The notes beneath the pieces were generated by a model that worked only from the letters and a program-made list of their open reading frames with translations, was not told the DNA's origin and ran no database searches. DNA of 64,000 nt from a virus, in the IMG/VR virus record IMGVR_UViG_3300017991_000010, positions 30,029 to 94,028 of that record; one strand, written 5' to 3'. The position numbers and the translations under genes were made by a program. Below are positions 9,167 through 39,883 of the stretch, piece by piece (within the stretch, counting starts at the first letter, position 1; each line of letters begins with the position of its first letter).

Positions 9167-10765
9167 ATGATCTACTTCGTGGCGAGCATCCTAGGCAGGG
9201 GCGAGTGGGCGATCAGGGCGAGGGAGTGGGCGCGGGCCCTCTATCCACTCGCCGACTGCAGGCTCTACTCGACCGATAGGCAGCCCCTCCAGTCCGCCAT
9301 CCTGCCGCGCTACAACCCGACCATCACCAAGGAGCACCCCAACGGCAGCTCGCCCTACGACTTCCTGCTCGAGATGGCGACGCGCGAGCCCAAGGCGGCG
9401 CACTGCACGATCCGCTTCGGTCCCATCCAGACCCTGATGAACATCACCGATCGCGCGCCCTACGAGATCGCGATCACGGACATCCCCGAGAACCTCACCG
9501 GGCGCCAGCGGCGCGTCCTCGAGCGCTTCGACGAGGTCTGGGTTCCCACTCTGGCGATGCAGGAGCTGTACGGGAGTGGGAACTGCGTGGCGTGGGCCGA
9601 GCCACACGCGGGCGGGGGTTTCTGGGGGGCGATCAAGCCGCTCAGCATCGACGACGAGGGGCGCGAGATCACGGCCGCATTCGGGACGTGGGAGGAGATC
9701 GAGCCGCGTGCCGCGCGCTTCTTTGCTCAGCACCCGCCCGACGGGCCCCACCGCTTCTTGGCCGTGTGCCCCGACTGTCCGATCACGACCTCGGGGCAGC
9801 TCGTCAAGGCCTTTGGCCTGGGCGATGTGCGCCTGCCCTTCTCCCTCAGCCCAGCGCTGCCAACGGACATCGAGACCCTGATCGCGATCCGCAAGGCGTG
9901 CAACAACGTCTCTGAAGTGCCCCGCCCCATGGGCCCCTCCTACTGGGATCGCATGAGCTGCTACGCAACCCCGCCGGCCTGGAAGGTGCGCAACCGCCTC
10001 GCGGAGATCCCCAACGACACCGTCGAGCCCGAGCCTGTGCAGGCGAGCGGCCCGGCCTCGAGCGGCACCGACATCTGCTACGTGATCCCCTTCCGCGACC
10101 GGCCTCGGTACATGCTCGAGGACTGCCTGGCTGCGATCCGCGAGGGCGAGCTGCCCAAGGGCGATCGCATTGTGGTCTCCGACCAGTCGCCCGAATTCGA
10201 CCCCGAGGTCCTCGCGCTGTGCGCCCAGTTCGATGCGACGCTCGTGCGCGACATGGCGCCTCCGCACCGCTGGAACGCAGCCAAGTGCCGCAACATTGGC
10301 GTCAGGGCGTGCCCCGAGGCGGACTACTATGCGCTCGTGGACGTGGACTGCACCGTGCCGCCCGACTATGGTGATCGCATCCGCGAAGAGCTGGCCTACG
10401 CGCCCGGCACGCCGATCACGCCCATGGTCTCCGACCTCGACGAGGAAGGTGCCCCTGCTGACTCGCGCCCGGCGCCCGGCTGCACGGTCTACCCGCACCA
10501 CCTCTACTGGGCGGCGAGCGGCATGGATGAGGGCTTCGAGCGCTGGGGCTCCGAGGACATGGACTTGCTCTGGCGCCTGCGGCAGGGCGGGATCGAAGCG
10601 AGCCTGCTCGAGGACGTGATCCTGGAGCACGCCTACCACCCCCCTCAGGAGGGCAAGGCCGAGAGCGGCGAGGCGAACCTCGAGCGCATCAACAGGCGCC
10701 AGCGCGGCGAGCTAGGCGCAGCCAACCCCGACGGATGGGGCGAGGGCGGGGAGGTGGTGGCGTGA
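9167..10765 (+). CDS. Two-domain glycosyltransferase (degenerate GT-B-like N-terminus plus GT2/GT7C)
   Basis: FDEVWVPT; YVIPFRDR, DVD (DxD), GMDEGFERWGSEDMDL. Confidence 0.8.
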   Translation: MIYFVASILGRGEWAIRAREWARALYPLADCRLYSTDRQPLQSAILPRYNPTITKEHPNGSSPYDFLLEMATREPKAAHCTIRFGPIQTLMNITDRAPYEIAITDIPENLTGRQRRVLERFDEVWVPTLAMQELYGSGNCVAWAEPHAGGGFWGAIKPLSIDDEGREITAAFGTWEEIEPRAARFFAQHPPDGPHRFLAVCPDCPITTSGQLVKAFGLGDVRLPFSLSPALPTDIETLIAIRKACNNVSEVPRPMGPSYWDRMSCYATPPAWKVRNRLAEIPNDTVEPEPVQASGPASSGTDICYVIPFRDRPRYMLEDCLAAIREGELPKGDRIVVSDQSPEFDPEVLALCAQFDATLVRDMAPPHRWNAAKCRNIGVRACPEADYYALVDVDCTVPPDYGDRIREELAYAPGTPITPMVSDLDEEGAPADSRPAPGCTVYPHHLYWAASGMDEGFERWGSEDMDLLWRLRQGGIEASLLEDVILEHAYHPPQEGKAESGEANLERINRRQRGELGAANPDGWGEGGEVVA

Positions 10766-11820
10766 TCACCTTCTACGGCCACTTCAGCGGCTACTCGAGC
10801 TACCCGACGGTCTGCCGCGCGATCGCCAACTACTTGCACTCGATCGGCACGAAAGACTTGCAGCTGTGCGACCTGCGGCCCCAGGGCGCGTACGACGGCG
10901 TCCCCGGCATCTCGCGCGTGCCTTCGAGCACGTGGCGTGCGGTGCAGGAGGGGCGGGCCGACCGATGGAACAAGCGCCCAGGCACTGCGCTCGTCTTCGG
11001 CTTCCCCGAGTGGGTGCGGCGCGTCGCCCAGCACGAGCGCATGGTAGGCTACCACGTGTGCGACGTGGACCGAATCCCCCGGCACTGGGCGCACATCATA
11101 AACACCGAGGACCTCGTCATCACGCCCTCGCAGTGGTGCCACGGCGTGTTCCGCAACTGCGGCGTGACGACCCCGATCGCGATTGTGCACCACGGCGTCG
11201 ATGTGGCCTTCGGGGCGGTCAAGCGTCCGAAGCTCCCGCGCGAGCCCCTGACCTTCCTGCACACCTGCTCGGCGGGAGAGCCCGATCGCAAGGGCACCCT
11301 GCAGCTCGTCGAGGCGTGGGAGCGGCTGGCGTCGATGGGCGAGATCGACGCGAAGCTCACGATCCTGTCGTCCTTCCCCGAGGCGCACGCTCCCCTGGCC
11401 AAGAAGAGCTTAGGCATCAAGGTCATCAGCGGCAAGGTGGCCCGGACGCCTGCTGAGATGGCCCAGTGCGTTGCGGGCTTCCACGGCCTCGTACAGCCGT
11501 CCCGCGCCGAGGGCTTCGGCATGCTGCCCCTCGAGTGCGCCGCTGCAGGCCTCCCAACGCTCGCTACGGACTGCACGGGCCACGCAGAGCATGACAGGTA
11601 CTCGACCTCCTGGAGCATTCCCACGGGCCCCTTGGCCCCCTGCGGAGGCGCCCAAGCACCTAGCCTTGACCTTGGCCACGTTGCCAACGCCCTCTTGTAC
11701 ATGATCGAGAACTACGATACACTCCAAGACGAGGCCAATGCCCGGCGCTCAACCATCATGGAGACGTGGGCGTGGCACAAGGTCCTCGAAAACCTGCCGG
11801 AATTGTTGACACCCTCCTGA
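10762..11820 (+). CDS. GT4 glycosyltransferase
   Basis: ITPSQW, HHGVD, DRKG, PSRAEGFGMLPLECAAAGLP (EX7E motif). Confidence 0.9.
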   Translation: MITFYGHFSGYSSYPTVCRAIANYLHSIGTKDLQLCDLRPQGAYDGVPGISRVPSSTWRAVQEGRADRWNKRPGTALVFGFPEWVRRVAQHERMVGYHVCDVDRIPRHWAHIINTEDLVITPSQWCHGVFRNCGVTTPIAIVHHGVDVAFGAVKRPKLPREPLTFLHTCSAGEPDRKGTLQLVEAWERLASMGEIDAKLTILSSFPEAHAPLAKKSLGIKVISGKVARTPAEMAQCVAGFHGLVQPSRAEGFGMLPLECAAAGLPTLATDCTGHAEHDRYSTSWSIPTGPLAPCGGAQAPSLDLGHVANALLYMIENYDTLQDEANARRSTIMETWAWHKVLENLPELLTPS

Positions 11821-11870
11821 GCGTCAGCGCCGGTCTGCTCGCCCTCCTCCTCTTTCCTCAGAGGTAGTCA

Positions 11871-12425
11871 ATGCCCGGTGAGCAGGGATCGCATCCTATC
11901 CAGCAACTGGCGCCGATCGTAGCGCAGGAAACGTCCTACTCCGTCTCGGGCGTGGGCGCGAACGAGACCCGTACGGTACTGTGTGACGCTACAGGCCGGC
12001 TGGTCGTCGTAGCGCCCGCGGCAGGCATCGGCGTCGACATCCAGTTCGTCGATGGCAACCCCGTCCAGAGCGATGGCGCCGGCACCATGAACGTCGCAGT
12101 CCAGGGCGTCGAGGGCGACGACACGACCCTGACCCCAGTCCCCGCAGCGCGCTTCTCGCCCGTCGACAGCGAGGGCGGCTCGCAGGCCGTGACGAACGTG
12201 AGCGCGCGCATCGGTCCCTTGACGGTCAACAAGGCCATCCAGTTCTTCTGCGACGAGATTTGTTGGTGCGCCAAGGGGAACAACACCGTGGTAGCGACCA
12301 ACAACGACACGCCCATCCAGGCTGGCGTGGTCTACGAGTACGTGCCCACGGCGGGGAACGACTATCTCGCGTTCATCCACGACGCGAACGACGGCGACCT
12401 CAAATACGGTCGGGCGGAGGCGTAG
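11871..12425 (+). CDS. Putative spike base/adaptor structural protein
   Basis: Beta-rich and acidic; directly upstream of the spike genes. Confidence 0.5.
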   Translation: MPGEQGSHPIQQLAPIVAQETSYSVSGVGANETRTVLCDATGRLVVVAPAAGIGVDIQFVDGNPVQSDGAGTMNVAVQGVEGDDTTLTPVPAARFSPVDSEGGSQAVTNVSARIGPLTVNKAIQFFCDEICWCAKGNNTVVATNNDTPIQAGVVYEYVPTAGNDYLAFIHDANDGDLKYGRAEA

Positions 12426-12428
12426 ATC

Positions 12429-14069
12429 ATGGGCTCAACGCTCTGGGGCACGACGCTACCGAGGGGCGGTGGTGCTGGTGGTGCGCTTTCACTGCCCGAC
12501 ATCCAGCAGATCCTCATCGTGGACAAGACCGCAGGCACTTACGCGCCCGACGGCACGCAGCAGCGTCCCTTCAACTCGATCGGTGCGGCCGTGACTGCCG
12601 CAGTAGCGCTTGCGCCCACGACGACCAATCGCATTCTGATCTACATCCACCCGGGCATCTACGAAGAAGCCGTAGCCATCACCAACGACTTCATCTACCT
12701 CCAGGGCGAGGATCGGGACACGACGATCATCACGAGCGACACGGTGACCCTGGGGATCACGGCCGACGAGGTCTCGGTTTCGGACCTGACGATCCACAGC
12801 GAGGATGCGTTCTACGCGATCGGCCTCAATGGCTCCTTCAACGAGTTCGTCCGGTTCTTCAACTGCCTGATCGATGTTGGTGACCCTGACGGGTACGTGT
12901 TCATCGAGGGCGGCGCCTCTGCGTGGTTCGAGCGCTGCGATTGGATCGTGGACGATGGTGCAGGAGGCGACCCTGCGCTTGCAACAGACGATGACGCGTC
13001 CAACCGCGTGGTCCTCAACGACTGCACCATCTCAGGTGGCTATATCGACTTCGACGGCGGCGCGCTCACAGTCCGGGACGGCTCGATCTCGTCCGACTCC
13101 GCCAACGGCTGTGTGCGCCTGACTGACGCCAACGTAGGCGTAGTCACGCTCGACAGCGTACACTTCATTGGCTTGGCTGCTGGGGCGCGCAAGATCTACG
13201 TGACCGCGGCGCCCACTCAGGGAATCGTGCGCAACTGCCTCTTTGACTCGGGCGCGAACAACCCCGACATCGACTCGACCGTAGCACTCACCGGCTGGAT
13301 CATTGAGGGCAACGTGATGGAGGCAGGGATCGACTCCAATGTCTCGCACGTGGCCCCGACGCGCTACGTGGGTGCGGCAGGGGACGTCGACTTTTATGCA
13401 GCCATCCAGGACGCTCTCGACGCGTGCACCTTCGACGACATCACCGTGCACCTGCTGCAGGACTTCACGATCGCCGCAGCGCTGACTCCGCCTTCAAGGC
13501 CCGTGATCATCGATGGCCATGGGTTCACGATAACGCGCGCGGCAGGCTCTCCGGCCATAACGATCGGCTCCAGTGACGACCTCGAGACACGGGACGTGAA
13601 CATCGTTGGCAGCATCGACTTTGCTCCCGCGCAAGGAGGCGCTACGCTGCTCCTGGGCCCCGGCACGGTTCTTACGGGCATGCTTGACGTGCAGAGCGGT
13701 GACGCTACAGCCACAGTTGACCTGGACGGAGCTACCGTGAACGGCGACGCGAGCGACAACTACTGCATCCGTCTCGCCGACGCAGACCCGGTCGTGACGA
13801 TCAAGCGCTCCTACCTGAAGGGCAATAGCGGCAACGTGGCCATCTACTGGGATACGGTCACGAACGACGACCTACAGCTCGCGTGGTCTACGGTGATCCA
13901 CGGGAGCGTGGGCGCCAACAACCCTTTCGGGAGGTCGGGTGCGCAGACGCCAGACTACAAGTCGCACCACGACGCGTACAACAGCGATCCCGAAGCAGGG
14001 GCGATCTGGACCAACCTGGTGGCTGCTGGGCAGCGGTTTGACAGCCTAGACGTGAACACGGACTACTAG
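12429..14069 (+). CDS. Beta-helix (pectin-lyase-like) spike/receptor-binding protein 1
   Basis: DGTQQRPFNSIGAA, IYIHPGIYEE, YLQGEDRDTTII, repeated F.NC/V.NC strands. Confidence 0.75.
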   Translation: MGSTLWGTTLPRGGGAGGALSLPDIQQILIVDKTAGTYAPDGTQQRPFNSIGAAVTAAVALAPTTTNRILIYIHPGIYEEAVAITNDFIYLQGEDRDTTIITSDTVTLGITADEVSVSDLTIHSEDAFYAIGLNGSFNEFVRFFNCLIDVGDPDGYVFIEGGASAWFERCDWIVDDGAGGDPALATDDDASNRVVLNDCTISGGYIDFDGGALTVRDGSISSDSANGCVRLTDANVGVVTLDSVHFIGLAAGARKIYVTAAPTQGIVRNCLFDSGANNPDIDSTVALTGWIIEGNVMEAGIDSNVSHVAPTRYVGAAGDVDFYAAIQDALDACTFDDITVHLLQDFTIAAALTPPSRPVIIDGHGFTITRAAGSPAITIGSSDDLETRDVNIVGSIDFAPAQGGATLLLGPGTVLTGMLDVQSGDATATVDLDGATVNGDASDNYCIRLADADPVVTIKRSYLKGNSGNVAIYWDTVTNDDLQLAWSTVIHGSVGANNPFGRSGAQTPDYKSHHDAYNSDPEAGAIWTNLVAAGQRFDSLDVNTDY

Positions 14070-22793: not shown

Positions 22794-23438
22794 ATGGCCA
22801 AGTACATCTTTCCGAAGGAGAAGAAGTTCCCCGTCGGGGACAAGGAGCACGAGCGGCGGGCCTACGCCTACGCGCTCGCTGGCCGCATCTCCGAGGACCA
22901 GATCATGCCCGTGTTCCGCTACCTTGCCAAGCACGCCAAGGACGAGGACACGAAGCTCCGGGCCTTGGGCGCGCTGCTCCAGTGGCGCAACTACCAGACC
23001 GGCGACGTCGCCAAGGCCTACGGGGTCGTGCGGCGGAAGGGGGCGCGGCGGAATAGCAGCAAGACCGACTACATGAACTACAAGGCGCGCCTGTGGGACG
23101 GCGTAAGAGCCGCGCAGGAGCTGGATCGCTTCACCTTCATCGTCCTGTTCGTCGCTCGCATGACGCGGCGCAAGGTAGATCGGGACGTGACCGAGGGCTA
23201 CATGGTGCACCGGACTCGCGGCGGCTGGGTCTACGGTTGGGGCACGCGCCCCGACGATTGGCTCAACCGCCCCACCAAGGACGCCTACCGCCTGTACGAT
23301 ATGATCCGTAGGACCCCGCTGAACTTCTACGTGCGACAAGCCGAGGAGTTCAGGATCGATGTTCACGAGAGGCAGCCGTTTGGCACGGCTGACGCGCGGA
23401 AGCGGCGCGCGGTCGAACAGGGAACGGAGGGCTGGTGA
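22794..23438 (+). CDS. Basic two-module hypothetical protein
   Basis: SD GAGG; FPKEKKFPVGDKEH module; RRKGARRN linker. Confidence 0.65.
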   Translation: MAKYIFPKEKKFPVGDKEHERRAYAYALAGRISEDQIMPVFRYLAKHAKDEDTKLRALGALLQWRNYQTGDVAKAYGVVRRKGARRNSSKTDYMNYKARLWDGVRAAQELDRFTFIVLFVARMTRRKVDRDVTEGYMVHRTRGGWVYGWGTRPDDWLNRPTKDAYRLYDMIRRTPLNFYVRQAEEFRIDVHERQPFGTADARKRRAVEQGTEGW

Positions 23439-31662: not shown

Positions 31663-32119
31663 TCATGCTTCGATCCTCTCCCGCTCGAGGTCGACTCGGT
31701 ACGTGTGGCGCTCTCCCGTCTCCGGGTCGACATACGCGACCTGGCGATCGATCAGCGGCGTGCGGGCCTCCCACAGCTCGTTGTAGTCGCGGCACGCCCG
31801 GCCGTACATGTGGATCGCCTCGATGGTCATGGCGCGCCAGTGCACCCTCGCGTGGGCGTAGCCGTAGGCGAAGCCTATCAGGAGCGCCGCTACGACGAAG
31901 ATGGCGCTGATCAGCAGTGTCATCTCACTCCTCCTCGCAGATCACGTGGTACTCGGCGCCGTCGGGCAGCAGGCACACGAGGTGCCCGTCGCACGTCTCG
32001 ACGACCTCGCCGACGCAGTCCAGCTCGCAGGGCTCGCGGGTCTGCGCCACGCAGTAGCCGAAGCCGAACGCGGGCGCGAGCAGGACGAGCACGGACGCGA
32101 TGGCCCTGGCCCAGGTCAT
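31663..32119 (-). other. Two small membrane/secreted proteins (31663-31923, 31925-32119)
   Basis: Hydrophobic N-termini; both contain FxYG/FGY motifs. Confidence 0.6.
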
Positions 32120-33075
32120 GACACTCCCCCCACGATCTTGCGCAGCAGGCTCCTGTCCTGCATCTCCTGGGCGATGACCGCGTCGACCATCACCTGATCG
32201 ATCAGGTCCCCCAGGCGAGCCTCGATGAGACGCTGGAGCACCTCAGGCCGCAGCGCGTCGACCTCCCAGGAGTGGTGCCCGTGCTCGGCGATGTACGCCG
32301 CCGCGCGCGAGTCCTTGAGCTTGGTCGGGTTGGGAGGCGGCCCATACTTCGCGACCTGCTCGGGCGTGATCGCGATCTTCTCCACGCGCACCTGGACCGG
32401 GAGTGCGTCGCTCACGTCGATGAACCATCCCGTAGGCGAGATGCGCTCGTCGCCGTCCTGGTAGCCCCACAGGAAGTCGTTCAGCCGGCTGCGCACGTCG
32501 CGCACCATGTCCTCGCCCGACGGGTCCAGGTCGCCCAGGTAGAGGATGATGGGCTCAGCCTGCGGCACGCCGTCTGCGTTGCGGCAGGCGTGGTCGATTC
32601 GGCACGCGGCCTCGTACATGGCCGACTGCGAGGAGTACCCCCGGTTGACCATGAGGGTGATGTGCCAGTGCTTCGCGATGGGGGCGAGCACGCCAGCCAG
32701 CGCGTCCTTCTCGACCCACAGCTCGACGTAGTTGGGCTGCCCCTCCATGCGTGGGCGCCGGTAGGAGTCCAGCGCCACCTTCACAAGCTCGTCGAGGTCG
32801 GCGAACTCGTTCGGGCGCTCTGGACGCCTGATGCGATCCTCGATCGCGTCCCAGTCGGTCAGCCCGGCCAGGCGCGCCTTCGACAAGAGTGACGAGAGCC
32901 GCTTGTACTCGCGCTCCTCGTTGGCGATGATGTTCTGTGTCACGAGCTGGTAGTAGAGCTGCCGGAGCGTGAGCCGCAGCCCCTGCTTCTGGTAGTGCTC
33001 CACGACCTCGTTGACCTGAGCCAAGCGCGCGAGCGTGTCCAGGCGCATCCTGGGCGGCTTGTAGCACTGCTTCAT
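32116..33075 (-). CDS. Toprim-domain protein (Topo VI-A/JetD-like)
   Basis: LTLRQLYYQL winged helix, VELWVEKDAL, RGYSS, YLGDLDPSG (DxD), EVDAL. Confidence 0.8.
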   Translation of the reverse strand: MKQCYKPPRMRLDTLARLAQVNEVVEHYQKQGLRLTLRQLYYQLVTQNIIANEEREYKRLSSLLSKARLAGLTDWDAIEDRIRRPERPNEFADLDELVKVALDSYRRPRMEGQPNYVELWVEKDALAGVLAPIAKHWHITLMVNRGYSSQSAMYEAACRIDHACRNADGVPQAEPIILYLGDLDPSGEDMVRDVRSRLNDFLWGYQDGDERISPTGWFIDVSDALPVQVRVEKIAITPEQVAKYGPPPNPTKLKDSRAAAYIAEHGHHSWEVDALRPEVLQRLIEARLGDLIDQVMVDAVIAQEMQDRSLLRKIVGGVS

Positions 33076-33979
33076 GACACGGCCTCCAACGTCTTCTTCT
33101 TGATCGACAGAGCCTTGCCCTCCCAGATCGCGCCCTTGGCCCACGCGGCGCAATCCTCGGTGCGTGCCCACGGCTTCAGAGGCATGTAGTCGGCGCGCCG
33201 CCTGCGCTCGCGCGTCACGCTCTTGTCCTTGTGCTCGGTCTCGACGATCTCCGTGAACCGCTCCCGGTGGGCACGGCGCAGGACCTTCATGTTCACGATC
33301 AGCAGCATTGTCTCTCCTCCTTTGCTCGGCGCGAGCATGCGGGACAGTAGTCCGTGACCTTGCCGTCCACTTTGCTGCACGTCCACCCAAACCTTTTGAG
33401 TTCCTGTCTCACATCAGCTACGCGGCTTCCAGAACGCTGCTCCCACCGCCAGCATCCAGAGGCGTCGCACCAGATGGTTGTCTCTCTGGACCAGCTCATT
33501 CCGTGACCTTGTCCCGCAGCGCGTCACGCACCAGCGCGCCCATGATGTGGAGTGCATCCTCGGCGTCACACAGCTCTTCCTCCGTCATCTCCGCTAGGCC
33601 CTTGTTCTGGACCATGACCATGGCGGATAGCACGTCGTTGAGTGTGGCGACCTCTTTCGGGGTGCGGCTGTTCATGTCGTCCCTCCTACAGCAGCGTCCA
33701 GTCGCCCACGTACACCTCCTCAAGGATCTCGTGGACCATCTGTCGGGCGCGCCGGGCAAACGTGACTTCCGCCTCGGCCTCGGAGTACTTCGCTTGCATC
33801 CGCAACTCCTCGTCGAGGCTCTGCAGGGCACCGAGCAGGTGGCGTCCGCGCATCAGGAGCAGCATCAGGTCGTCGTTGCTCCCGTCCTGGGGCAGGTCGA
33901 GCGTGACGCGTTTGTCGATGCCCTCGAGACGCGCTAGGCGCTCTTCGAGGTCAGCCAGCTTGGCTGTGATCTCGTCCAT
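33072..33979 (-). other. Four small hypothetical genes (33072-33308, 33299-33499, 33496-33675, 33686-33979)
   Basis: Coupled ORFs with SD sequences. Confidence 0.6.
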
Positions 33980-34784: not shown

Positions 34785-35516
34785 TTACGCAGTAGGGATC
34801 GGAATGCGCGGTAGCGGCCAGCCCGTGATCCACAGCTCGGCTGCTTTGCCTCGCATGGCATCGCGCCAGGCGTCCCTGAGCCGCTCCTCGCACCAGGCGC
34901 CCTCGCCCCAGACGAGATCGAGTACCGATAGCCCAGGCTGCCCCGCCTGCCCCCAGCCGCTGGGGAACTCCCTCGCCGCGGGGTTGGCGGTGACGTGTCC
35001 TACGGTCGCGTGCGCGCGTACACTACCTCTCCAGCCCAGCGCGTAGAGCGCGTCGCGGAGCCGCGCGGCCACGCCCCGCTCGCCCCCGGGCCCGTAGCTG
35101 CCGGCGTACCAGTCGGGCTCGCCCGGGTTCGCGGCGGTGCGGCAGTTGGCCAGGCCGATCACGCCACGCTGCACGGTCACGTGCGCGAGGCCTCGAGCCA
35201 GGCGCGCGAGGTCGAGGTTGTACTGGGGCAGGATCTCGCGTGGGGTGCCGTGGCCGACGATCACGACCGGGCCGGCGGAGCGGCGGGGTCGGGACTCGAG
35301 GGCGCGGTAGACATCGGCGGCGCTGCCTACGGGCACGCGGTCGCCCTGGAGTACGTTGTGGATGCGGTCGGCAGTCTCGCGCATCTCGGAGACTCCCGTG
35401 TCCGCGCGCGTCTGGTAGAGGACCAGGGGGCGGCCTCTCGCGCGCATGAGCGAGACGATCCAGGCGAGAGCGCCGGCGCCAAGCCCCGCGAGCAGCCATT
35501 TGGGGGGACGTCGCAT
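34785..35516 (-). CDS. Membrane-anchored caspase-fold-like (HG...C) protein A
   Basis: N-terminal TM; VVIVGHG and IGLANCRTA; paralog of 37522. Confidence 0.55.
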   Translation of the reverse strand: MRRPPKWLLAGLGAGALAWIVSLMRARGRPLVLYQTRADTGVSEMRETADRIHNVLQGDRVPVGSAADVYRALESRPRRSAGPVVIVGHGTPREILPQYNLDLARLARGLAHVTVQRGVIGLANCRTAANPGEPDWYAGSYGPGGERGVAARLRDALYALGWRGSVRAHATVGHVTANPAAREFPSGWGQAGQPGLSVLDLVWGEGAWCEERLRDAWRDAMRGKAAELWITGWPLPRIPIPTA

Positions 35517-35517
35517 C

Positions 35518-35547
35518 TTGCCCTGATCCTACCAGAGGTGGTACTCT
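35518..35547 (+). promoter_or_regulatory. Promoter for the polyprotein operon, overlapping a divergent promoter
   Basis: TTGCCC-18nt-TACTCT with extended TG; TGgTAGGAT on the - strand. Confidence 0.55.
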
Positions 35548-35573
35548 TAGTCTACAAGAGAGGACGCGCGCAC

Positions 35574-37370
35574 ATGAAAGCCACCGCCAAGAAGACCGCC
35601 TCTGGATACTCCGTCTCCATCGTCGACCGCAACGGCAGGAAGCTGACCATCGCGGTCTCGTCCAAGGCCAAGGCCGACAAGATCAAGAAGCTCGTCACCG
35701 TCGACGGCTTCACCGTCGGTCAGATCAAGATGCTCTACGGCAAGCGGCCGAAGGGCAAGGCCAAGCCAAAGCGCTCGACCACGAAGCCGCGCAAGAAGAA
35801 GCCAAGCGCGGCTGCTGTGCGGCGGGGAGCCGAAGCCCCCAAGCGCAAAGCCAAGCGTAACGTTTCGCGAGCGAAGACCAAGGCCAAGGTCACGATCCGC
35901 AAGCTCGCCAAGGGCTACTCGGTCAGTGGCAAGGACCGCCTGGGCAAGGCGATCCCCAAGATCACCGTGACGACCAAGGCGAAGGCCGACAACGCCAAGC
36001 GCCTCGTCGAGCAGAAGGGCATGACCGCCAAGCAAATCAAGATGCTCTTCGGAGCCGCGAAGAGGGCCGTCAAGCGCGTCGTGCGCAAGGCCAAGGCTCC
36101 GCAGCGCAACGCGGGCAAGACGGTCAAGCTGCTCCTTGGGGAGTACGGAGCCTACGTCGACGTCCCCATCAACGCCTGGGTCTACCAAGGTGACCCCAAA
36201 GAGGACAAGTACGGCGACTGGGAGGTCAGAGTCAAGAGCATGCGCGCGAAGGACGTCCCTAAGGGCCAGATGGCCTTCGAGACGAGGCACGAGGCCGAGA
36301 AGGACGTACAGCACTGGCTCAAGTCCAACCCCGGGCGCAAGGCGACTGCGAAGCGGCAGGCGGCGAAGCGCAATGCCCCCGGCATCACGATGGTGCTGGC
36401 AGACTACGGCGGGGACTACACCACCAGCGTGCCGCCCAACAAGTTCCTCTACATGTTCAAGCGCGGCGTGCTCCAGCGCATCAAGGCCAAGGACGTGCCC
36501 AAGTCGAAGCGGCTGACTGGAGACGTGTGGGAGTCCAAGCAGGGCGCGATCCAAGACGCACAGGACTACGCCGCTGGGGGACCTCGCGGACCGCGTAGTA
36601 GGGGCATGGCCGAGTACAACCCCAAGCGCACGCGCCGCAACAAGTGCAAGAACCCCAGCCCCCACGACCGCGTAGCGACGTACAAGATCAAGGGGAAGGT
36701 GGGCATCGACGCCGGCACGTACAACTACATCGTCTACGCCATGACCAACAAGGGGCGGAAGGATCTCGCGTACTACAAGAGCTACCGGTCTGCTAGCGCA
36801 GCCGCCAACTCGATCAACAAGCACGGCAAGTGGACTGGGGGGCGGGACCCAAAGCGCGGCATCTCCGTCATTCAGGTCCGGGGCAAGACGGCGACGGTGC
36901 ACTACACCGGCAGCCGCAAGAACCCCGCGAAGCCCAAGCGCAAGAAGCACTCCAACGCCGCGCTCAAGAAGGCCTTCCTCGCGATGCGCGCGAAGGTCGC
37001 CAAGCGCTGCCCGCAGATCAAGTCCATCGGTTTCGGCATCGATCCCAAGATCCACGACAAGCCCCGGCACTTTGGCCTGTACTACCCGATGACGAAGAGC
37101 CGTGGCGGCCAGGTTGGCCTCGCGCCCGAGATCGCCTACCAGCCCATGAGCGTCGTCCGCGGCATCATCCTCCACGAGCTGGGCCACGCCCTCATCGACC
37201 TCGGTTGCTTCCCCAAGGCCAAGAGTTGCAGCTACGACGCCATCGAGCGTCGGGCCGACGCCGCCGCCAAAGCCGCTTCGGGCATGCAGATCTACTACGG
37301 CAAGGACAACGTACAGCGCGCAGGGCCGGGCGCTAGCGGCAAGAAGCTCCGCCCGAAGGGTCTGCGGTGA
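35574..37370 (+). CDS. Basic modular polyprotein with a C-terminal HExxH metallopeptidase domain
   Basis: SD GAGAGGA; duplicated modules (GYSVS...QIKML twice, AKDVPK twice); IILHELGH...ERRAD. Confidence 0.8.
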   Translation: MKATAKKTASGYSVSIVDRNGRKLTIAVSSKAKADKIKKLVTVDGFTVGQIKMLYGKRPKGKAKPKRSTTKPRKKKPSAAAVRRGAEAPKRKAKRNVSRAKTKAKVTIRKLAKGYSVSGKDRLGKAIPKITVTTKAKADNAKRLVEQKGMTAKQIKMLFGAAKRAVKRVVRKAKAPQRNAGKTVKLLLGEYGAYVDVPINAWVYQGDPKEDKYGDWEVRVKSMRAKDVPKGQMAFETRHEAEKDVQHWLKSNPGRKATAKRQAAKRNAPGITMVLADYGGDYTTSVPPNKFLYMFKRGVLQRIKAKDVPKSKRLTGDVWESKQGAIQDAQDYAAGGPRGPRSRGMAEYNPKRTRRNKCKNPSPHDRVATYKIKGKVGIDAGTYNYIVYAMTNKGRKDLAYYKSYRSASAAANSINKHGKWTGGRDPKRGISVIQVRGKTATVHYTGSRKNPAKPKRKKHSNAALKKAFLAMRAKVAKRCPQIKSIGFGIDPKIHDKPRHFGLYYPMTKSRGGQVGLAPEIAYQPMSVVRGIILHELGHALIDLGCFPKAKSCSYDAIERRADAAAKAASGMQIYYGKDNVQRAGPGASGKKLRPKGLR

Positions 37371-37525
37371 GGCTCCTCGCACGCGCCATCGTCTCCCTGA
37401 TCTTCCTGCTCTTCGTCGCGTTCGTGCTGCCCTTCTACTCGTCCACCGCCGCCGTCGTCACGGGCCTCGTCATGTGCGCCGCGATCCTCGTGCATTGGGC
37501 CTGGACTGAGAGGAGGTACAGATGA
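37367..37525 (+). CDS. Small 2-TM membrane protein (52 aa, not in the ORF track)
   Basis: GTG overlaps the upstream stop and its stop overlaps the next ATG; hydrophobic throughout. Confidence 0.65.
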   Translation: MRLLARAIVSLIFLLFVAFVLPFYSSTAAVVTGLVMCAAILVHWAWTERRYR

Positions 37526-38250
37526 GAGTCGGCTTCTACTTGGTCAAGGACAGGCCGCGCAGGGTCCGTACCTTCATGCGCGCCGCGCGCTGGTGGCGCC
37601 AGCAGTGCTACGGGGACGAGGTGCGCATGTTCGCCTTCGCCGAGGGGCAGGACGTGCTCGCCGTGCTCGAGGACTTCCCCGACGACAGCCTCGAGCAGGT
37701 GGCCTTCTTCTGCCACGGGATCTCGTATGCGCTCGGCCGCCCCGGCAGGCTCGGCTTCGACGTCAGGCCCAAGCGCTACTCGCCCCCCGAGATCTGCGCG
37801 CACACCGAACTAGCCGAAGTCCTCGCGCGCAAGATGAAGCAAGGCGGGCTCGTCTCCCTCTGCGCGTGCCTGTGCTCTCGCTCGCCCCGCTGGCGCATCC
37901 GACAGCTCTTCGGCCGCATCCTCGACCCGTGGTCCCCGCAGTCCTACAAGGACGGGGGCGACGCCTCTTTCTCCTCGCGCTTGTGTCGGACGATCGACCG
38001 CATCGGCAAGCGCGTCCAGGTGCGCGGGCACGTCGCTGCGGGGCACACGATCAACCTCGCCTTGCTGCGCCAGCACGAGGGCGACGAGGCTGTGGGGCGC
38101 GCCTTGTTCCAGATGGTGCACGGCACCGGGACCAAGCCAACCTTGCGTTTGCGCCGCCAGTGGAATAGGATCGTGCGAGGCCGGCTGGCCGCGCGCTGGC
38201 TCTTGGGCCTGTGTGAGGTGGACGATGTGCGACGAACTCTGCAGCGATAG
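37522..38250 (+). CDS. Caspase-fold-like (HG...C) protein B
   Basis: VAFFCHG and VSLCACLCS; paralog of 34785. Confidence 0.55.
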   Translation: MRVGFYLVKDRPRRVRTFMRAARWWRQQCYGDEVRMFAFAEGQDVLAVLEDFPDDSLEQVAFFCHGISYALGRPGRLGFDVRPKRYSPPEICAHTELAEVLARKMKQGGLVSLCACLCSRSPRWRIRQLFGRILDPWSPQSYKDGGDASFSSRLCRTIDRIGKRVQVRGHVAAGHTINLALLRQHEGDEAVGRALFQMVHGTGTKPTLRLRRQWNRIVRGRLAARWLLGLCEVDDVRRTLQR

Positions 38251-38368
38251 CCTTCCGACCTGCCCCGAGTGCGGCTCCGAGCTAGAAGAGCGCGGCGGCC
38301 TGCGCTACTGCCTGGACTGCTCGTACCAGGAGGAGATCCCCGACGACCTCTTCTGCGACGCTACCTAG
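38225..38368 (+). CDS. Small zinc-ribbon protein (47 aa)
   Basis: CPECGSEL...YCLDCSY by manual translation. Confidence 0.5.
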   Translation: MCDELCSDSLPTCPECGSELEERGGLRYCLDCSYQEEIPDDLFCDAT

Positions 38369-38928: not shown

Positions 38929-39233
38929 ACGTACACCTTTCCAAGCTCTGTGGCTGACGGCTCTGGCTCGTGCTCGCCGTGGGGGAGCATCGCCGCCTTG
39001 GTCGCGTAGCTCGCGCCCGTGAGGATGAGCGCCGCGAGCCAGGGCTTGTCGCTGAACGCCGGGACGGCCCAGAGCCCTAGAGGGACGCCGATGGCCGTGC
39101 CGACGAGGCCCACGATCGTGAGCTGCGTCGCGAGGTCCTTCTGCTCGTCGCTCAGGACGTGCCGGCCGACGAGCACGCCGCCGGTGGTGAGGATCGCGAG
39201 CGCCCCGAGCATGCCAAGCTGAGCTTGAGTCAT
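38925..39233 (-). CDS. 3-TM membrane protein (holin-like)
   Basis: 102 aa, three hydrophobic segments, coupled to the M23 gene. Confidence 0.5.
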   Translation of the reverse strand: MTQAQLGMLGALAILTTGGVLVGRHVLSDEQKDLATQLTIVGLVGTAIGVPLGLWAVPAFSDKPWLAALILTGASYATKAAMLPHGEHEPEPSATELGKVYV

Positions 39234-39883
39234 CGGTTCCACCTCTCGCGCGCGTAGGCCGTGCCATTGGAGCGGAGCCACGCCACGGGGTCGAGCCTCC
39301 GGGGCGTGCGGCCTAGCCGCGGACGTGACCAGGGATGCACCTCCATGTGCAAGTGCGGCCCCATCGCGGCTGCCTGCCCTGGCGCCCAGTCTGGCGGCCT
39401 CCCGCCGGGGCCATGAGTCGTGGCACCCACGTCGCCGATGCGCCAGCCGGGGACTACGCTCTGCCCCACGCGGACGCGGATGCGGCTCAGGTGGCCGTAG
39501 AGCGTGCTCTGGCCGTCCCCATGATCGATCTGGACCGTCTCGCCGTAGCCGCTGATGGGGCTGGCGTGGACGACCGTCCCGCCCTTGACTGCGTAGATCG
39601 CCGTCCCGACAGGTGCTGCGATGTCGACGCCCCAGTGGGGGCTGATCTCGCCCGCGCCCGTGCGCCGCTGCATGTCGAGCCCGCGTACGAAGTTGCCCTG
39701 TGCGAGGACGTACTGGGCCGCGCCGCGCGTTGTGGTTCGGGGGGCCTCGCCGGGCTTGGTGCCGGGGCTGGGAAGCGTGCCGCCTGCGGCGAACCACTCA
39801 CGAGCTGTGCGGCGTTTGAGGGCGAGGATGGCAGCGACACCGAGGCCGGCGCCAGCAGCGGCTAGGAGGGCTCCACCTGGCAT
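39230..39883 (-). CDS. M23 peptidase (endolysin or entry enzyme) with N-terminal anchor
   Basis: HWGVD, GYG, TLYGHL, GPHLHMEV. Confidence 0.92.
   Translation of the reverse strand: MPGGALLAAAGAGLGVAAILALKRRTAREWFAAGGTLPSPGTKPGEAPRTTTRGAAQYVLAQGNFVRGLDMQRRTGAGEISPHWGVDIAAPVGTAIYAVKGGTVVHASPISGYGETVQIDHGDGQSTLYGHLSRIRVRVGQSVVPGWRIGDVGATTHGPGGRPPDWAPGQAAAMGPHLHMEVHPWSRPRLGRTPRRLDPVAWLRSNGTAYARERWNR

Follow-up and report, generated by a model that had tools for sequence, protein, structure and literature searches.

What would a virus cut with two related putative peptidases whose genes stand on either side of a gene for a lysine-rich, modular protein? The question is raised by a cassette at positions 34785-38250 of the DNA analyzed here, a 64,000-nucleotide stretch (hereafter the window) that covers bases 30029-94028 of the 94,028-bp IMG/VR virus record IMGVR_UViG_3300017991_000010. 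The record comes from an uncultured sediment virus, carries direct terminal repeats and was judged complete. The original prediction for this locus held that the two flanking genes encode caspase-fold proteases, and that these mature the central 598-amino-acid (aa) protein and other basic proteins by cutting them at Lys/Arg-Asn (K/R-N) sites. In the present analysis, the protease identity is supported and polyprotein maturation is unproven. We consider it probable that the cassette encodes three predicted peptidases, with two clan CD endopeptidases flanking a 598-aa protein of the polyvalent type.

The cassette is built around three open reading frames (ORFs), at 34785-35516 on the minus strand and at 35574-37370 and 37522-38250 on the plus strand. 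All three resemble the real genes of the genome in their G+C content at third codon positions (GC3 0.86-0.91). The flanking genes are paralogs of each other, as had been proposed: BLASTP aligns their products over ~200 aa with 27% identity (E 8e-12). Paralog 1 (34785..35516, minus strand; 243 aa) has a hydrophobic helix at residues 6-26, followed by a predicted clan CD (DUF4347/C80-like) cysteine peptidase domain with H89-G90 at nucleotides 35252-35247, C125 at 35144-35142 and H169 at 35012-35010. Paralog 2 (37522..38250, plus strand; 242 aa) is a predicted soluble peptidase of clan CD type, with H65-G66 at 37714-37719, C116 at 37867-37869 and H170 at 38029-38031; a GAGAGGAGG ribosome-binding site stands ahead of its gene. 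The strand-HG and strand-x-C motifs first seen in these two proteins extend to their relatives. In a 112-member alignment, the His and the Gly are each kept in 111/112 sequences and the Cys in 112/112, and a further His (H169 in paralog 1 numbering) is kept in 104/112.

Structure prediction places these motifs in a recognizable fold. With the family alignment as input, the AlphaFold2 (AF2) model of paralog 1 reached a predicted local distance difference test score (pLDDT) of 95.2 and a predicted template modelling score (pTM) of 0.89. The N-terminal helix (residues 6-26) is followed in this model by a strand-helix-strand-helix-strand order, with H89-G90 after strand 3 (84-87) and C125 after strand 4 (118-123). 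A His at the end of strand 3 and a Cys at the end of strand 4 correspond to the clan CD layout, as does the overall architecture, an alpha/beta/alpha sandwich built on a six-stranded central sheet. When the model was scanned against 48,161 PDB representatives (VIA), Tce1 of P. aeruginosa (9qpe_G) ranked first, with Z 12.0 and a root-mean-square deviation of 3.1 over 156 residues. The next matches were the MARTX CPD (Z 9.0), the TcdA CPD (8.8) and SAVED-CHAT (8.4), followed by caspases (8.2 and 8.1), legumain (8.1) and a metacaspase (8.1). Nearly all of the top 22 matches (Z 6.8-12.0) belong to clan CD; the inactive caspase-like domain of Raptor is at rank 20. Foldseek results were similar in kind but weak (best E 2.8e-3), and flavodoxins and pyridoxal phosphate (PLP) enzymes were also listed. 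A reading of the HG...C...H pattern as an alpha/beta-hydrolase or a glutamine-amidotransferase-type Cys-His arrangement was dropped after the fold search.

Tce1 is also found by sequence. The family profile retrieved it from the PDB at E 0.003, with the family His and Cys aligned to chain positions 77 and 131. Since the chain starts at residue 110, these positions are His186 and Cys240, the two residues that superpose on the catalytic dyad of TcdB (PMC13323088). For Tce2, toxicity in yeast is abolished by the C115S substitution (PMC13323088). The model and the alignments together support a clan CD caspase fold with a conserved His/Cys dyad in both flanking proteins, in line with the caspase-haemoglobinase fold that had been anticipated. 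We infer that the enzymes would cleave peptide bonds through this His-Gly/Cys dyad.

Tce1 (PA0256) and Tce2 (PA2372) are DUF4347 (PF14252) effectors of the H3 type VI secretion system (T6SS). Among known systems they provide the closest structural match (PDB 9qpe), with a shared dyad and a similar domain size of ~200 aa. There are nevertheless clear differences. Identity is ~17%, and the window proteins fall below the DUF4347 Pfam model. The window enzymes are encoded by a virus, with no adjoining T6SS and no Hcp partner, and one copy carries a membrane helix. Their family also has additional conserved residues, namely H169, G144-G145, R182 and W217.

A profile search of 1.8 billion representative proteins shows that the family is large: at least 652 clusters match at E <= 1e-3, and 41 clusters still match when the cutoff is lowered to E <= 1e-30. 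It is also unannotated, as neither paralog reaches any model in Pfam, PHROG, PADLOC or NCBIfam. Neither matches PF14252 (DUF4347; gathering threshold 24.6 bits) even at E <= 1, and the eight of the 112 family members that do match do so only below threshold (best E 0.0023). Likewise, Peptidase_C80 (PF11713) matches neither paralog and only one of the 112 relatives (E 0.006), and Pfam C13 (legumain) matches neither paralog. These sub-threshold matches to DUF4347 and the single match to Peptidase_C80 point to a sister family rather than a member of either Pfam family.

The two paralogs represent distinct branches of the family. Paralog 1 shares 40-46% identity with metagenomic proteins of ~245 aa that have the same N-terminal helix, and paralog 2 shares 36-45% identity with a separate, helix-less set in which H65, G66, C116 and H170 are invariant. 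The other 110 aligned members divide into 63 that are nearer paralog 1, 29 that are nearer paralog 2 and 18 that are ambiguous; the membrane helix is present in 32 of the 63 paralog 1-type members and in none of the 29 paralog 2-type members. As each of these separate subfamilies includes 19 strong relatives, the duplication is old. The equal numbers are compatible with joint travel of both types, without proving it.

The same domain occurs in longer proteins. It follows Metallophos-CHAP-GDSL-M15 arrays in archaeal proteins and eCIS_core zincin domains in others (P0129, P0122, P0134), and single proteins join it to a trypsin, subtilase (S8) or Hedgehog-type M15 domain. C80 domains, which occupy such a place behind arrays of enzymes, serve there as releasing peptidases: they work in cis within a single toxin, are activated by inositol hexakisphosphate (InsP6) and cut after Leu. 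Their hallmarks include a basic pocket that binds InsP6 and a beta-flap. The C80 CPDs of MARTX (3fzy) and C. difficile TcdA/TcdB (3ho6) have the same clan CD fold and dyad order as the window enzymes, whose relatives lie at the C-terminal end of multi-enzyme proteins, as would be the case for a releasing peptidase. In contrast, the window enzymes are encoded by separate stand-alone genes, though fused relatives exist. The fusion contexts are compatible both with a role as a toxin module and with a C80-like role as a releasing peptidase.

One of these fusions was identified in a Methanosarcinales metagenome-assembled genome. Contig CAYOQS010000003.1 encodes at 10001-13831 a 1277-aa archaeal protein in which Metallophos, CHAP-like, GDSL lipase and M15 peptidase domains precede the same clan CD domain at the end of the chain. 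Relatives of this protein in Woesearchaeota align up to residue ~1030 only and are without the protease end. A scan of genome contigs with P0023 returned this multi-enzyme protein and, besides it, only relatives without a protease domain, and the family is present in 3/301 sampled genomes of that archaeal phylum. Other homologues are carried on metagenomic contigs of 87 kb (P0070), 28 kb (P0018), 27 kb (P0032), 13 kb (P0058), 12.6 kb (P0004) and 11 kb (P0008).

The central gene (35574..37370, plus strand) encodes the 598-aa protein, which is rich in Lys (15%, against 4% for the proteome) and also contains 8% Arg. It had been described as a string of modules, and this description holds. Modules A1 (residues 1-57; 35574..35744) and A2 (residues 104-160; 35883-36053) form a repeat with z = 18.9 against shuffles. 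They are followed by B1 (residues 183-251) and B2 (270-335), a diverged tandem repeat at 36120..36578 (z = 5.4; score reached by 1/2000 shuffles), then by module C (residues ~364-446; 36663..36911) and by a predicted zincin-like metallopeptidase module (residues 461-598; 36954..37367). Five basic, nearly acid-free linkers join the modules. No family in Pfam, PHROG, PADLOC or NCBIfam was matched by the whole protein, and none in Pfam by single modules. Homologue searches returned no protein of similar length; the shorter homologues comprise only one identical fragment and a stand-alone zincin.

Only part of the 598-aa protein could be modelled with confidence. The single-sequence AF2 model has an overall pLDDT of 41 and gives rough secondary structure only outside A1, which is the sole confidently modelled part (pLDDT ~86) and comprises three strands and two helices. 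In the fold search, A1 came closest to an AP2 DNA-binding domain (6sy0_A; Z 6.2, rmsd 2.4 over 54 aa), which is a lead only to a possible AP2-like fold. The A repeats probably bind DNA. Module C has mixed strands and one helix in the low-confidence model, with no recognized fold and no family match.

Two motifs, HELGH (534-538) and ERRAD (558), lie in the C-terminal 138 residues. They fall in successive predicted helices within a predicted helix-strands-helix-helix order; both predictions come from a low-confidence model. The motifs are preserved in P0164, a stand-alone zincin homologue of 136 aa (45% identity, E 4e-17), which also keeps the C-terminal tail VQRAGPGA...RPKGL. A low-confidence ESM Atlas model of the zincin region resembles SprT-like, YgjP-like and WLM zincins, with target-normalized template modelling scores of 0.42-0.52. 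The isolated domain reaches no Pfam zincin family, including Peptidase_M78 (PF06114), at E <= 10. Its likeness to ImmA/IrrE is limited to the HExxH...E..AD motif, and an hhalign comparison with the zincin-bearing P0129 detected likeness at the HExxH level only.

From its sequence, the 598-aa protein is best read as a modular protein of the polyvalent type with a C-terminal HExxH...E zincin. Polyvalent proteins, such as DdrB of phage P1 and ArdC, are multi-domain proteins of mobile elements (Iyer et al. 2017, PMC5512222). The 598-aa protein resembles them in having modules of nucleic-acid-binding type first and the putative zincin last. A zincin metallopeptidase core is defined by an HExxH helix and a following helix that bears the third-ligand Glu, and autoproteolytic domain release has been proposed for polyvalent proteins that contain it (PMC5512222). 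Modular proteins with built-in processing peptidases are already known in tailed phages and plasmids (PMC5512222). The window protein differs in several respects: it contains no detected catalogued polyvalent domain, its modules are small, repeated and very lysine-rich, and its gene does not adjoin head or MuF genes. In addition, clan CD is absent from the four peptidase superfamilies catalogued for polyvalent proteins (PMC5512222).

The central protein and the soluble paralog are linked by gene overlaps. Between them lies a 52-aa gene (37367..37525, plus strand) that encodes two hydrophobic helices and overlaps both neighbours: its start and the stop of the 598-aa gene form GTGA, and its stop and the start of paralog 2 form ATGA. 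The plus-strand part of the cassette closes with a 51-aa zinc-ribbon gene (38213..38368) that overlaps the paralog 2 gene at the latter's end; its product matches a double zinc ribbon weakly (E 9e-4). Given the GTGA and ATGA overlaps, the genes for the 598-aa protein, the 52-aa protein, paralog 2 and the 51-aa zinc-ribbon protein constitute one plus-strand operon. The 52-aa two-helix protein may be a membrane partner of the cassette. A promoter and terminator scan of the region gave nothing above shuffles.

These observations can be combined into a model of the cassette. Its flanking genes would encode catalytically competent clan CD cysteine endopeptidases from an unannotated sister family of DUF4347/Tce and of the self-cleaving C80 toxin domains. 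One predicted enzyme would be anchored by its N-terminal membrane helix; the other would be soluble and coupled in translation, via the 52-aa putative membrane protein, to the 598-aa gene. The product of that gene would combine two probably DNA-binding A repeats, two B repeats, a C module, disordered basic linkers and a C-terminal zincin. The most probable job of the peptidases would be limited proteolysis within the virus's own programme, and we tentatively favour this reading, with the 598-aa protein or the basic product of the gene at position 273 (the 273 protein) as candidate substrates. A more specific version is improbable: that the anchored and soluble peptidases form a conserved two-enzyme system that matures basic DNA-binding proteins (the 598-aa and 273 proteins) at their linkers. 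By analogy, such a system would be an equally speculative caspase-fold counterpart, in a prokaryotic virus, of core maturation in adenovirus, African swine fever virus or poxvirus. The adenovirus comparison, which was already drawn in the original prediction, is apt in that a cysteine protease and very basic DNA-associated proteins occur together in a large double-stranded DNA virus. The adenovirus protease, though, belongs to clan CE, has another fold and recognizes a defined, conserved cleavage consensus; the window proteins show no conserved consensus of this kind.

Several points weigh against the favoured reading. Peptidase activity is a prediction for every member of the family, and the two paralogs lie outside all of the annotated models searched. 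Even Tce1 and Tce2 are only putative proteases, for which the case rests on Tce2 toxicity that C115S relieves (PMC13323088). Paralog 1 is transcribed divergently from the operon, across a 57-bp spacer. The cassette lies outside the structural gene block, with lysogeny and replication genes on one side and lysis genes on the other, in the manner of an accessory island. No related virus was found in the contig searches, and conserved linkage of the genes is thus unproven. Lastly, the characterized proteins nearest to the family are injected effectors, and fusion to eCIS_core is a mark of toxins; both points favour host targets.

Cleavage of host proteins is nearly as likely as action within the viral programme, although it too is a tentative reading. 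The paralogs would then be host-directed effectors, with roles in takeover, counter-defence or envelope remodelling, and the 598-aa neighbour would be incidental. Tce1, the closest solved relative, and Tce2 are Hcp-loaded, and the toxicity of Tce2 depends on its Cys (PMC13323088). Fusion partners within the family include the toxin marker eCIS_core as well as hydrolases of the cell wall and of lipids, but the paralogs themselves match no PADLOC, defence or anti-defence family and have no evident immunity-like partner. The cassette forms a plus-strand island amid minus-strand genes and adjoins an M23 lysin; within it, however, paralog 2 is tightly coupled in translation to the 598-aa gene. The apparently equal population of the subfamilies (19 and 19) is also what a conserved pair would be expected to show, more than variable cargo.

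As the 598-aa protein bears its own putative HExxH peptidase, self-processing is another rival. It is unlikely, in our assessment, that the zincin serves for self-processing of this protein or for action on DNA-bound proteins, as proposed for DdrB of phage P1 and for ArdC-type polyvalent proteins or SprT/ImmA-like enzymes, with the clan CD paralogs uninvolved in its maturation. HELGH with a Glu in the next predicted helix would fit the definition of a zincin metallopeptidase, and the domain is kept as a stand-alone protein and has structural leads to SprT, YgjP and WLM, though these come from low-confidence models of a region that reaches no Pfam zincin family. The AP2-like lead for the N-terminal modules agrees with the combination of DNA binding and a C-terminal metallopeptidase that is common among polyvalent proteins, some of which nonetheless stay wholly uncleaved despite their metallopeptidase (PMC5512222). 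Self-processing by the zincin would be compatible with substrates of the clan CD enzymes in either the viral programme or the host.

The K/R-N polyprotein scheme is less convincing still, and we regard it as very doubtful. It proposes that the clan CD proteases cut precursors after Asn during virion maturation, these precursors being the 598-aa protein, the 273 protein and the product of the gene at 22794. Its enzymatic part fares well, in that the clan CD fold and dyad were recovered, and virus-encoded proteases mostly process viral proteins. The site rule was assessed with module limits set from the repeats and predicted secondary structure, and all Asn and motif patterns were picked after the sequence had been viewed. 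Eight of the 18 Asn residues of the 598-aa protein fall in the linkers (8/128 residues, against 10/470 in modules; Fisher p 0.035), an enrichment of ~3-fold, and every one of the five linkers contains at least one. The [KR]N dipeptide is also in excess inside linkers (6 observed, 3.0 expected; p 0.03), but not significantly so in the whole protein (7 against 4.3; p 0.11). For position, the excess is not significant: 4/5 linkers have an Asn no more than 8 residues from their end, against 2.7 expected (p 0.22). Such post hoc tests are marginal.

Asn precedes A, P, V or S 12 times against 5.3 expected (p 4e-4), as the scheme would have it. However, Asn-Pro and Asn-Ala are ordinary dipeptides of helix starts and linkers, and would also be seen at helix or strand N-caps and in disordered basic linkers; N461, for example, begins a predicted helix (461-478) in the low-confidence model. 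Pro occupies P1' in 4/9 proposed sites, and most endopeptidases refuse Pro at this position. The R-N-A sequences ahead of B1 and B2 (motif positions 178 and 266) are at equivalent positions and were copied along with the repeat, so they count as one event and not two. The homologues found included no orthologue of the 598-aa protein.

The remaining argument for the scheme concerns the A[KR]RN motif, which recurs in the two most basic proteins. Its six occurrences in the predicted proteome comprise two each in the 598-aa and 273 proteins and one each in the 22794 and 5266 proteins. The 22794 example is the ARRN-S that had been pointed out originally. The 273 protein (273-1889, 538 aa) begins with 206 Arg/Lys-rich residues that include nine Asn and no Asp or Glu, as had also been reported correctly; hydrophobic helices and then an acidic C-terminal half follow. 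One of its A[KR]RN motifs lies right at the junction where the basic tract gives way to the membrane helices. The recurrence of A[KR]RN is an unexplained oddity and the best remaining point for the Asn-cleavage proposal.

The specificity of the enzymes does not lend weight to the scheme either. Asn-specific legumain was among the clan CD enzymes cited in the original prediction. To our knowledge, legumain or asparaginyl endopeptidase (C13), in which a zwitterionic S1 pocket binds Asn, is the only Asn-specific family in clan CD. Legumain has the clan fold in common with paralog 1 (Z 8.1, 143 aa aligned), as is typical of the whole clan, but there is no match to its sequence family, and caspases, CHAT and metacaspases come at least as close. 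As the window enzymes are closest to DUF4347/Tce1 and to the Leu-specific C80 CPDs, nothing indicates specificity for Asn. Cleavage specifically after Asn is not supported, and no site rule is established.

The weakest alternative, that the flanking proteins are no peptidases at all and have a Rossmann- or flavodoxin-like fold with other chemistry or serve as a non-catalytic, Raptor-like scaffold, can draw on the weak Foldseek values, the listed flavodoxins and PLP enzymes and the predicted status of the family's activity, but is highly improbable given the almost uniformly clan CD structural matches with a well-separated first rank, the near-invariant dyad at canonical strand ends and its alignment by sequence with the dyad of Tce1.

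Clan CD (caspase-fold) peptidases are familiar as toxins of bacteria, as effectors in defence and, in eukaryotes, as enzymes of death or processing. We know of no case in which they serve as maturation enzymes of prokaryotic viruses. The present family is large and unannotated, with membrane-anchored and soluble subfamilies that are both represented in one complete 94-kb sediment virus. What is new here is the viral source, the pairing of membrane-anchored and soluble forms, and the gene neighbourhood. Processing of the neighbouring basic proteins by these enzymes would represent a new mode of maturing virions or nucleoproteins, whereas cleavage of host proteins would make them a virus-borne branch of the Tce/DUF4347 effector proteases. 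In either case, the cassette provides a concrete and cheap test system.

Neither the paralogs (tblastn) nor the region (blastn) matched any GenBank phage, and the viral PolA shares at most 26% identity with its relatives among GenBank phages. Queries with alignments of the family, with individual members, with the 598-aa protein and with the viral PolA returned no related locus from viral contigs, and none was found in metagenome contigs or genome contigs. Near-identical DNA is nevertheless present at low depth in several metagenomes of sediment and seawater, which belong to several studies dated 2018 and 2021. The 34785-38250 region is identical, with zero variants, in contigs from four sediment and seawater runs, and there is no RNA run among the sequencing runs listed as carrying it. 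In another assembly, the 254-aa protein P0163 on a 13-kb contig was called with a start at Met345 of the 598-aa protein (window position 36606, in the linker before module C). This start may be an artefact of the contig end, or it may hint at an internal start.

With respect to gene content, the genome encodes a tyrosine integrase, a UDG-PolA fusion, a helicase, an SbcC-like ATPase, a topoisomerase-like protein, glycosyltransferases and the M23 lysin, and the G+C content of the window is ~66%. Six-frame searches of the whole 94-kb record with hidden Markov models detected no TerL_ATPase, Terminase_6N or FtsK_SpoIIIE, and PHROGs recognized no head, portal or tail protein among the large plus-strand genes tested. 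Judged by these sequence comparisons, this is a virus without a recognizable terminase. The M23 peptidase is encoded just downstream of the cassette (39230-39883, minus strand), begins with an N-terminal hydrophobic helix and gives endolysin-type PHROG matches to E 4.5e-22; its presence argues for a peptidoglycan-bearing host. On the other side of the cassette, the ORF at 32116-33390 (minus strand) matches PHROG 6247 (DNA topoisomerase) at E 5.7e-81 over residues 106-419, and the first 105 residues of this longest ORF are probably untranslated.

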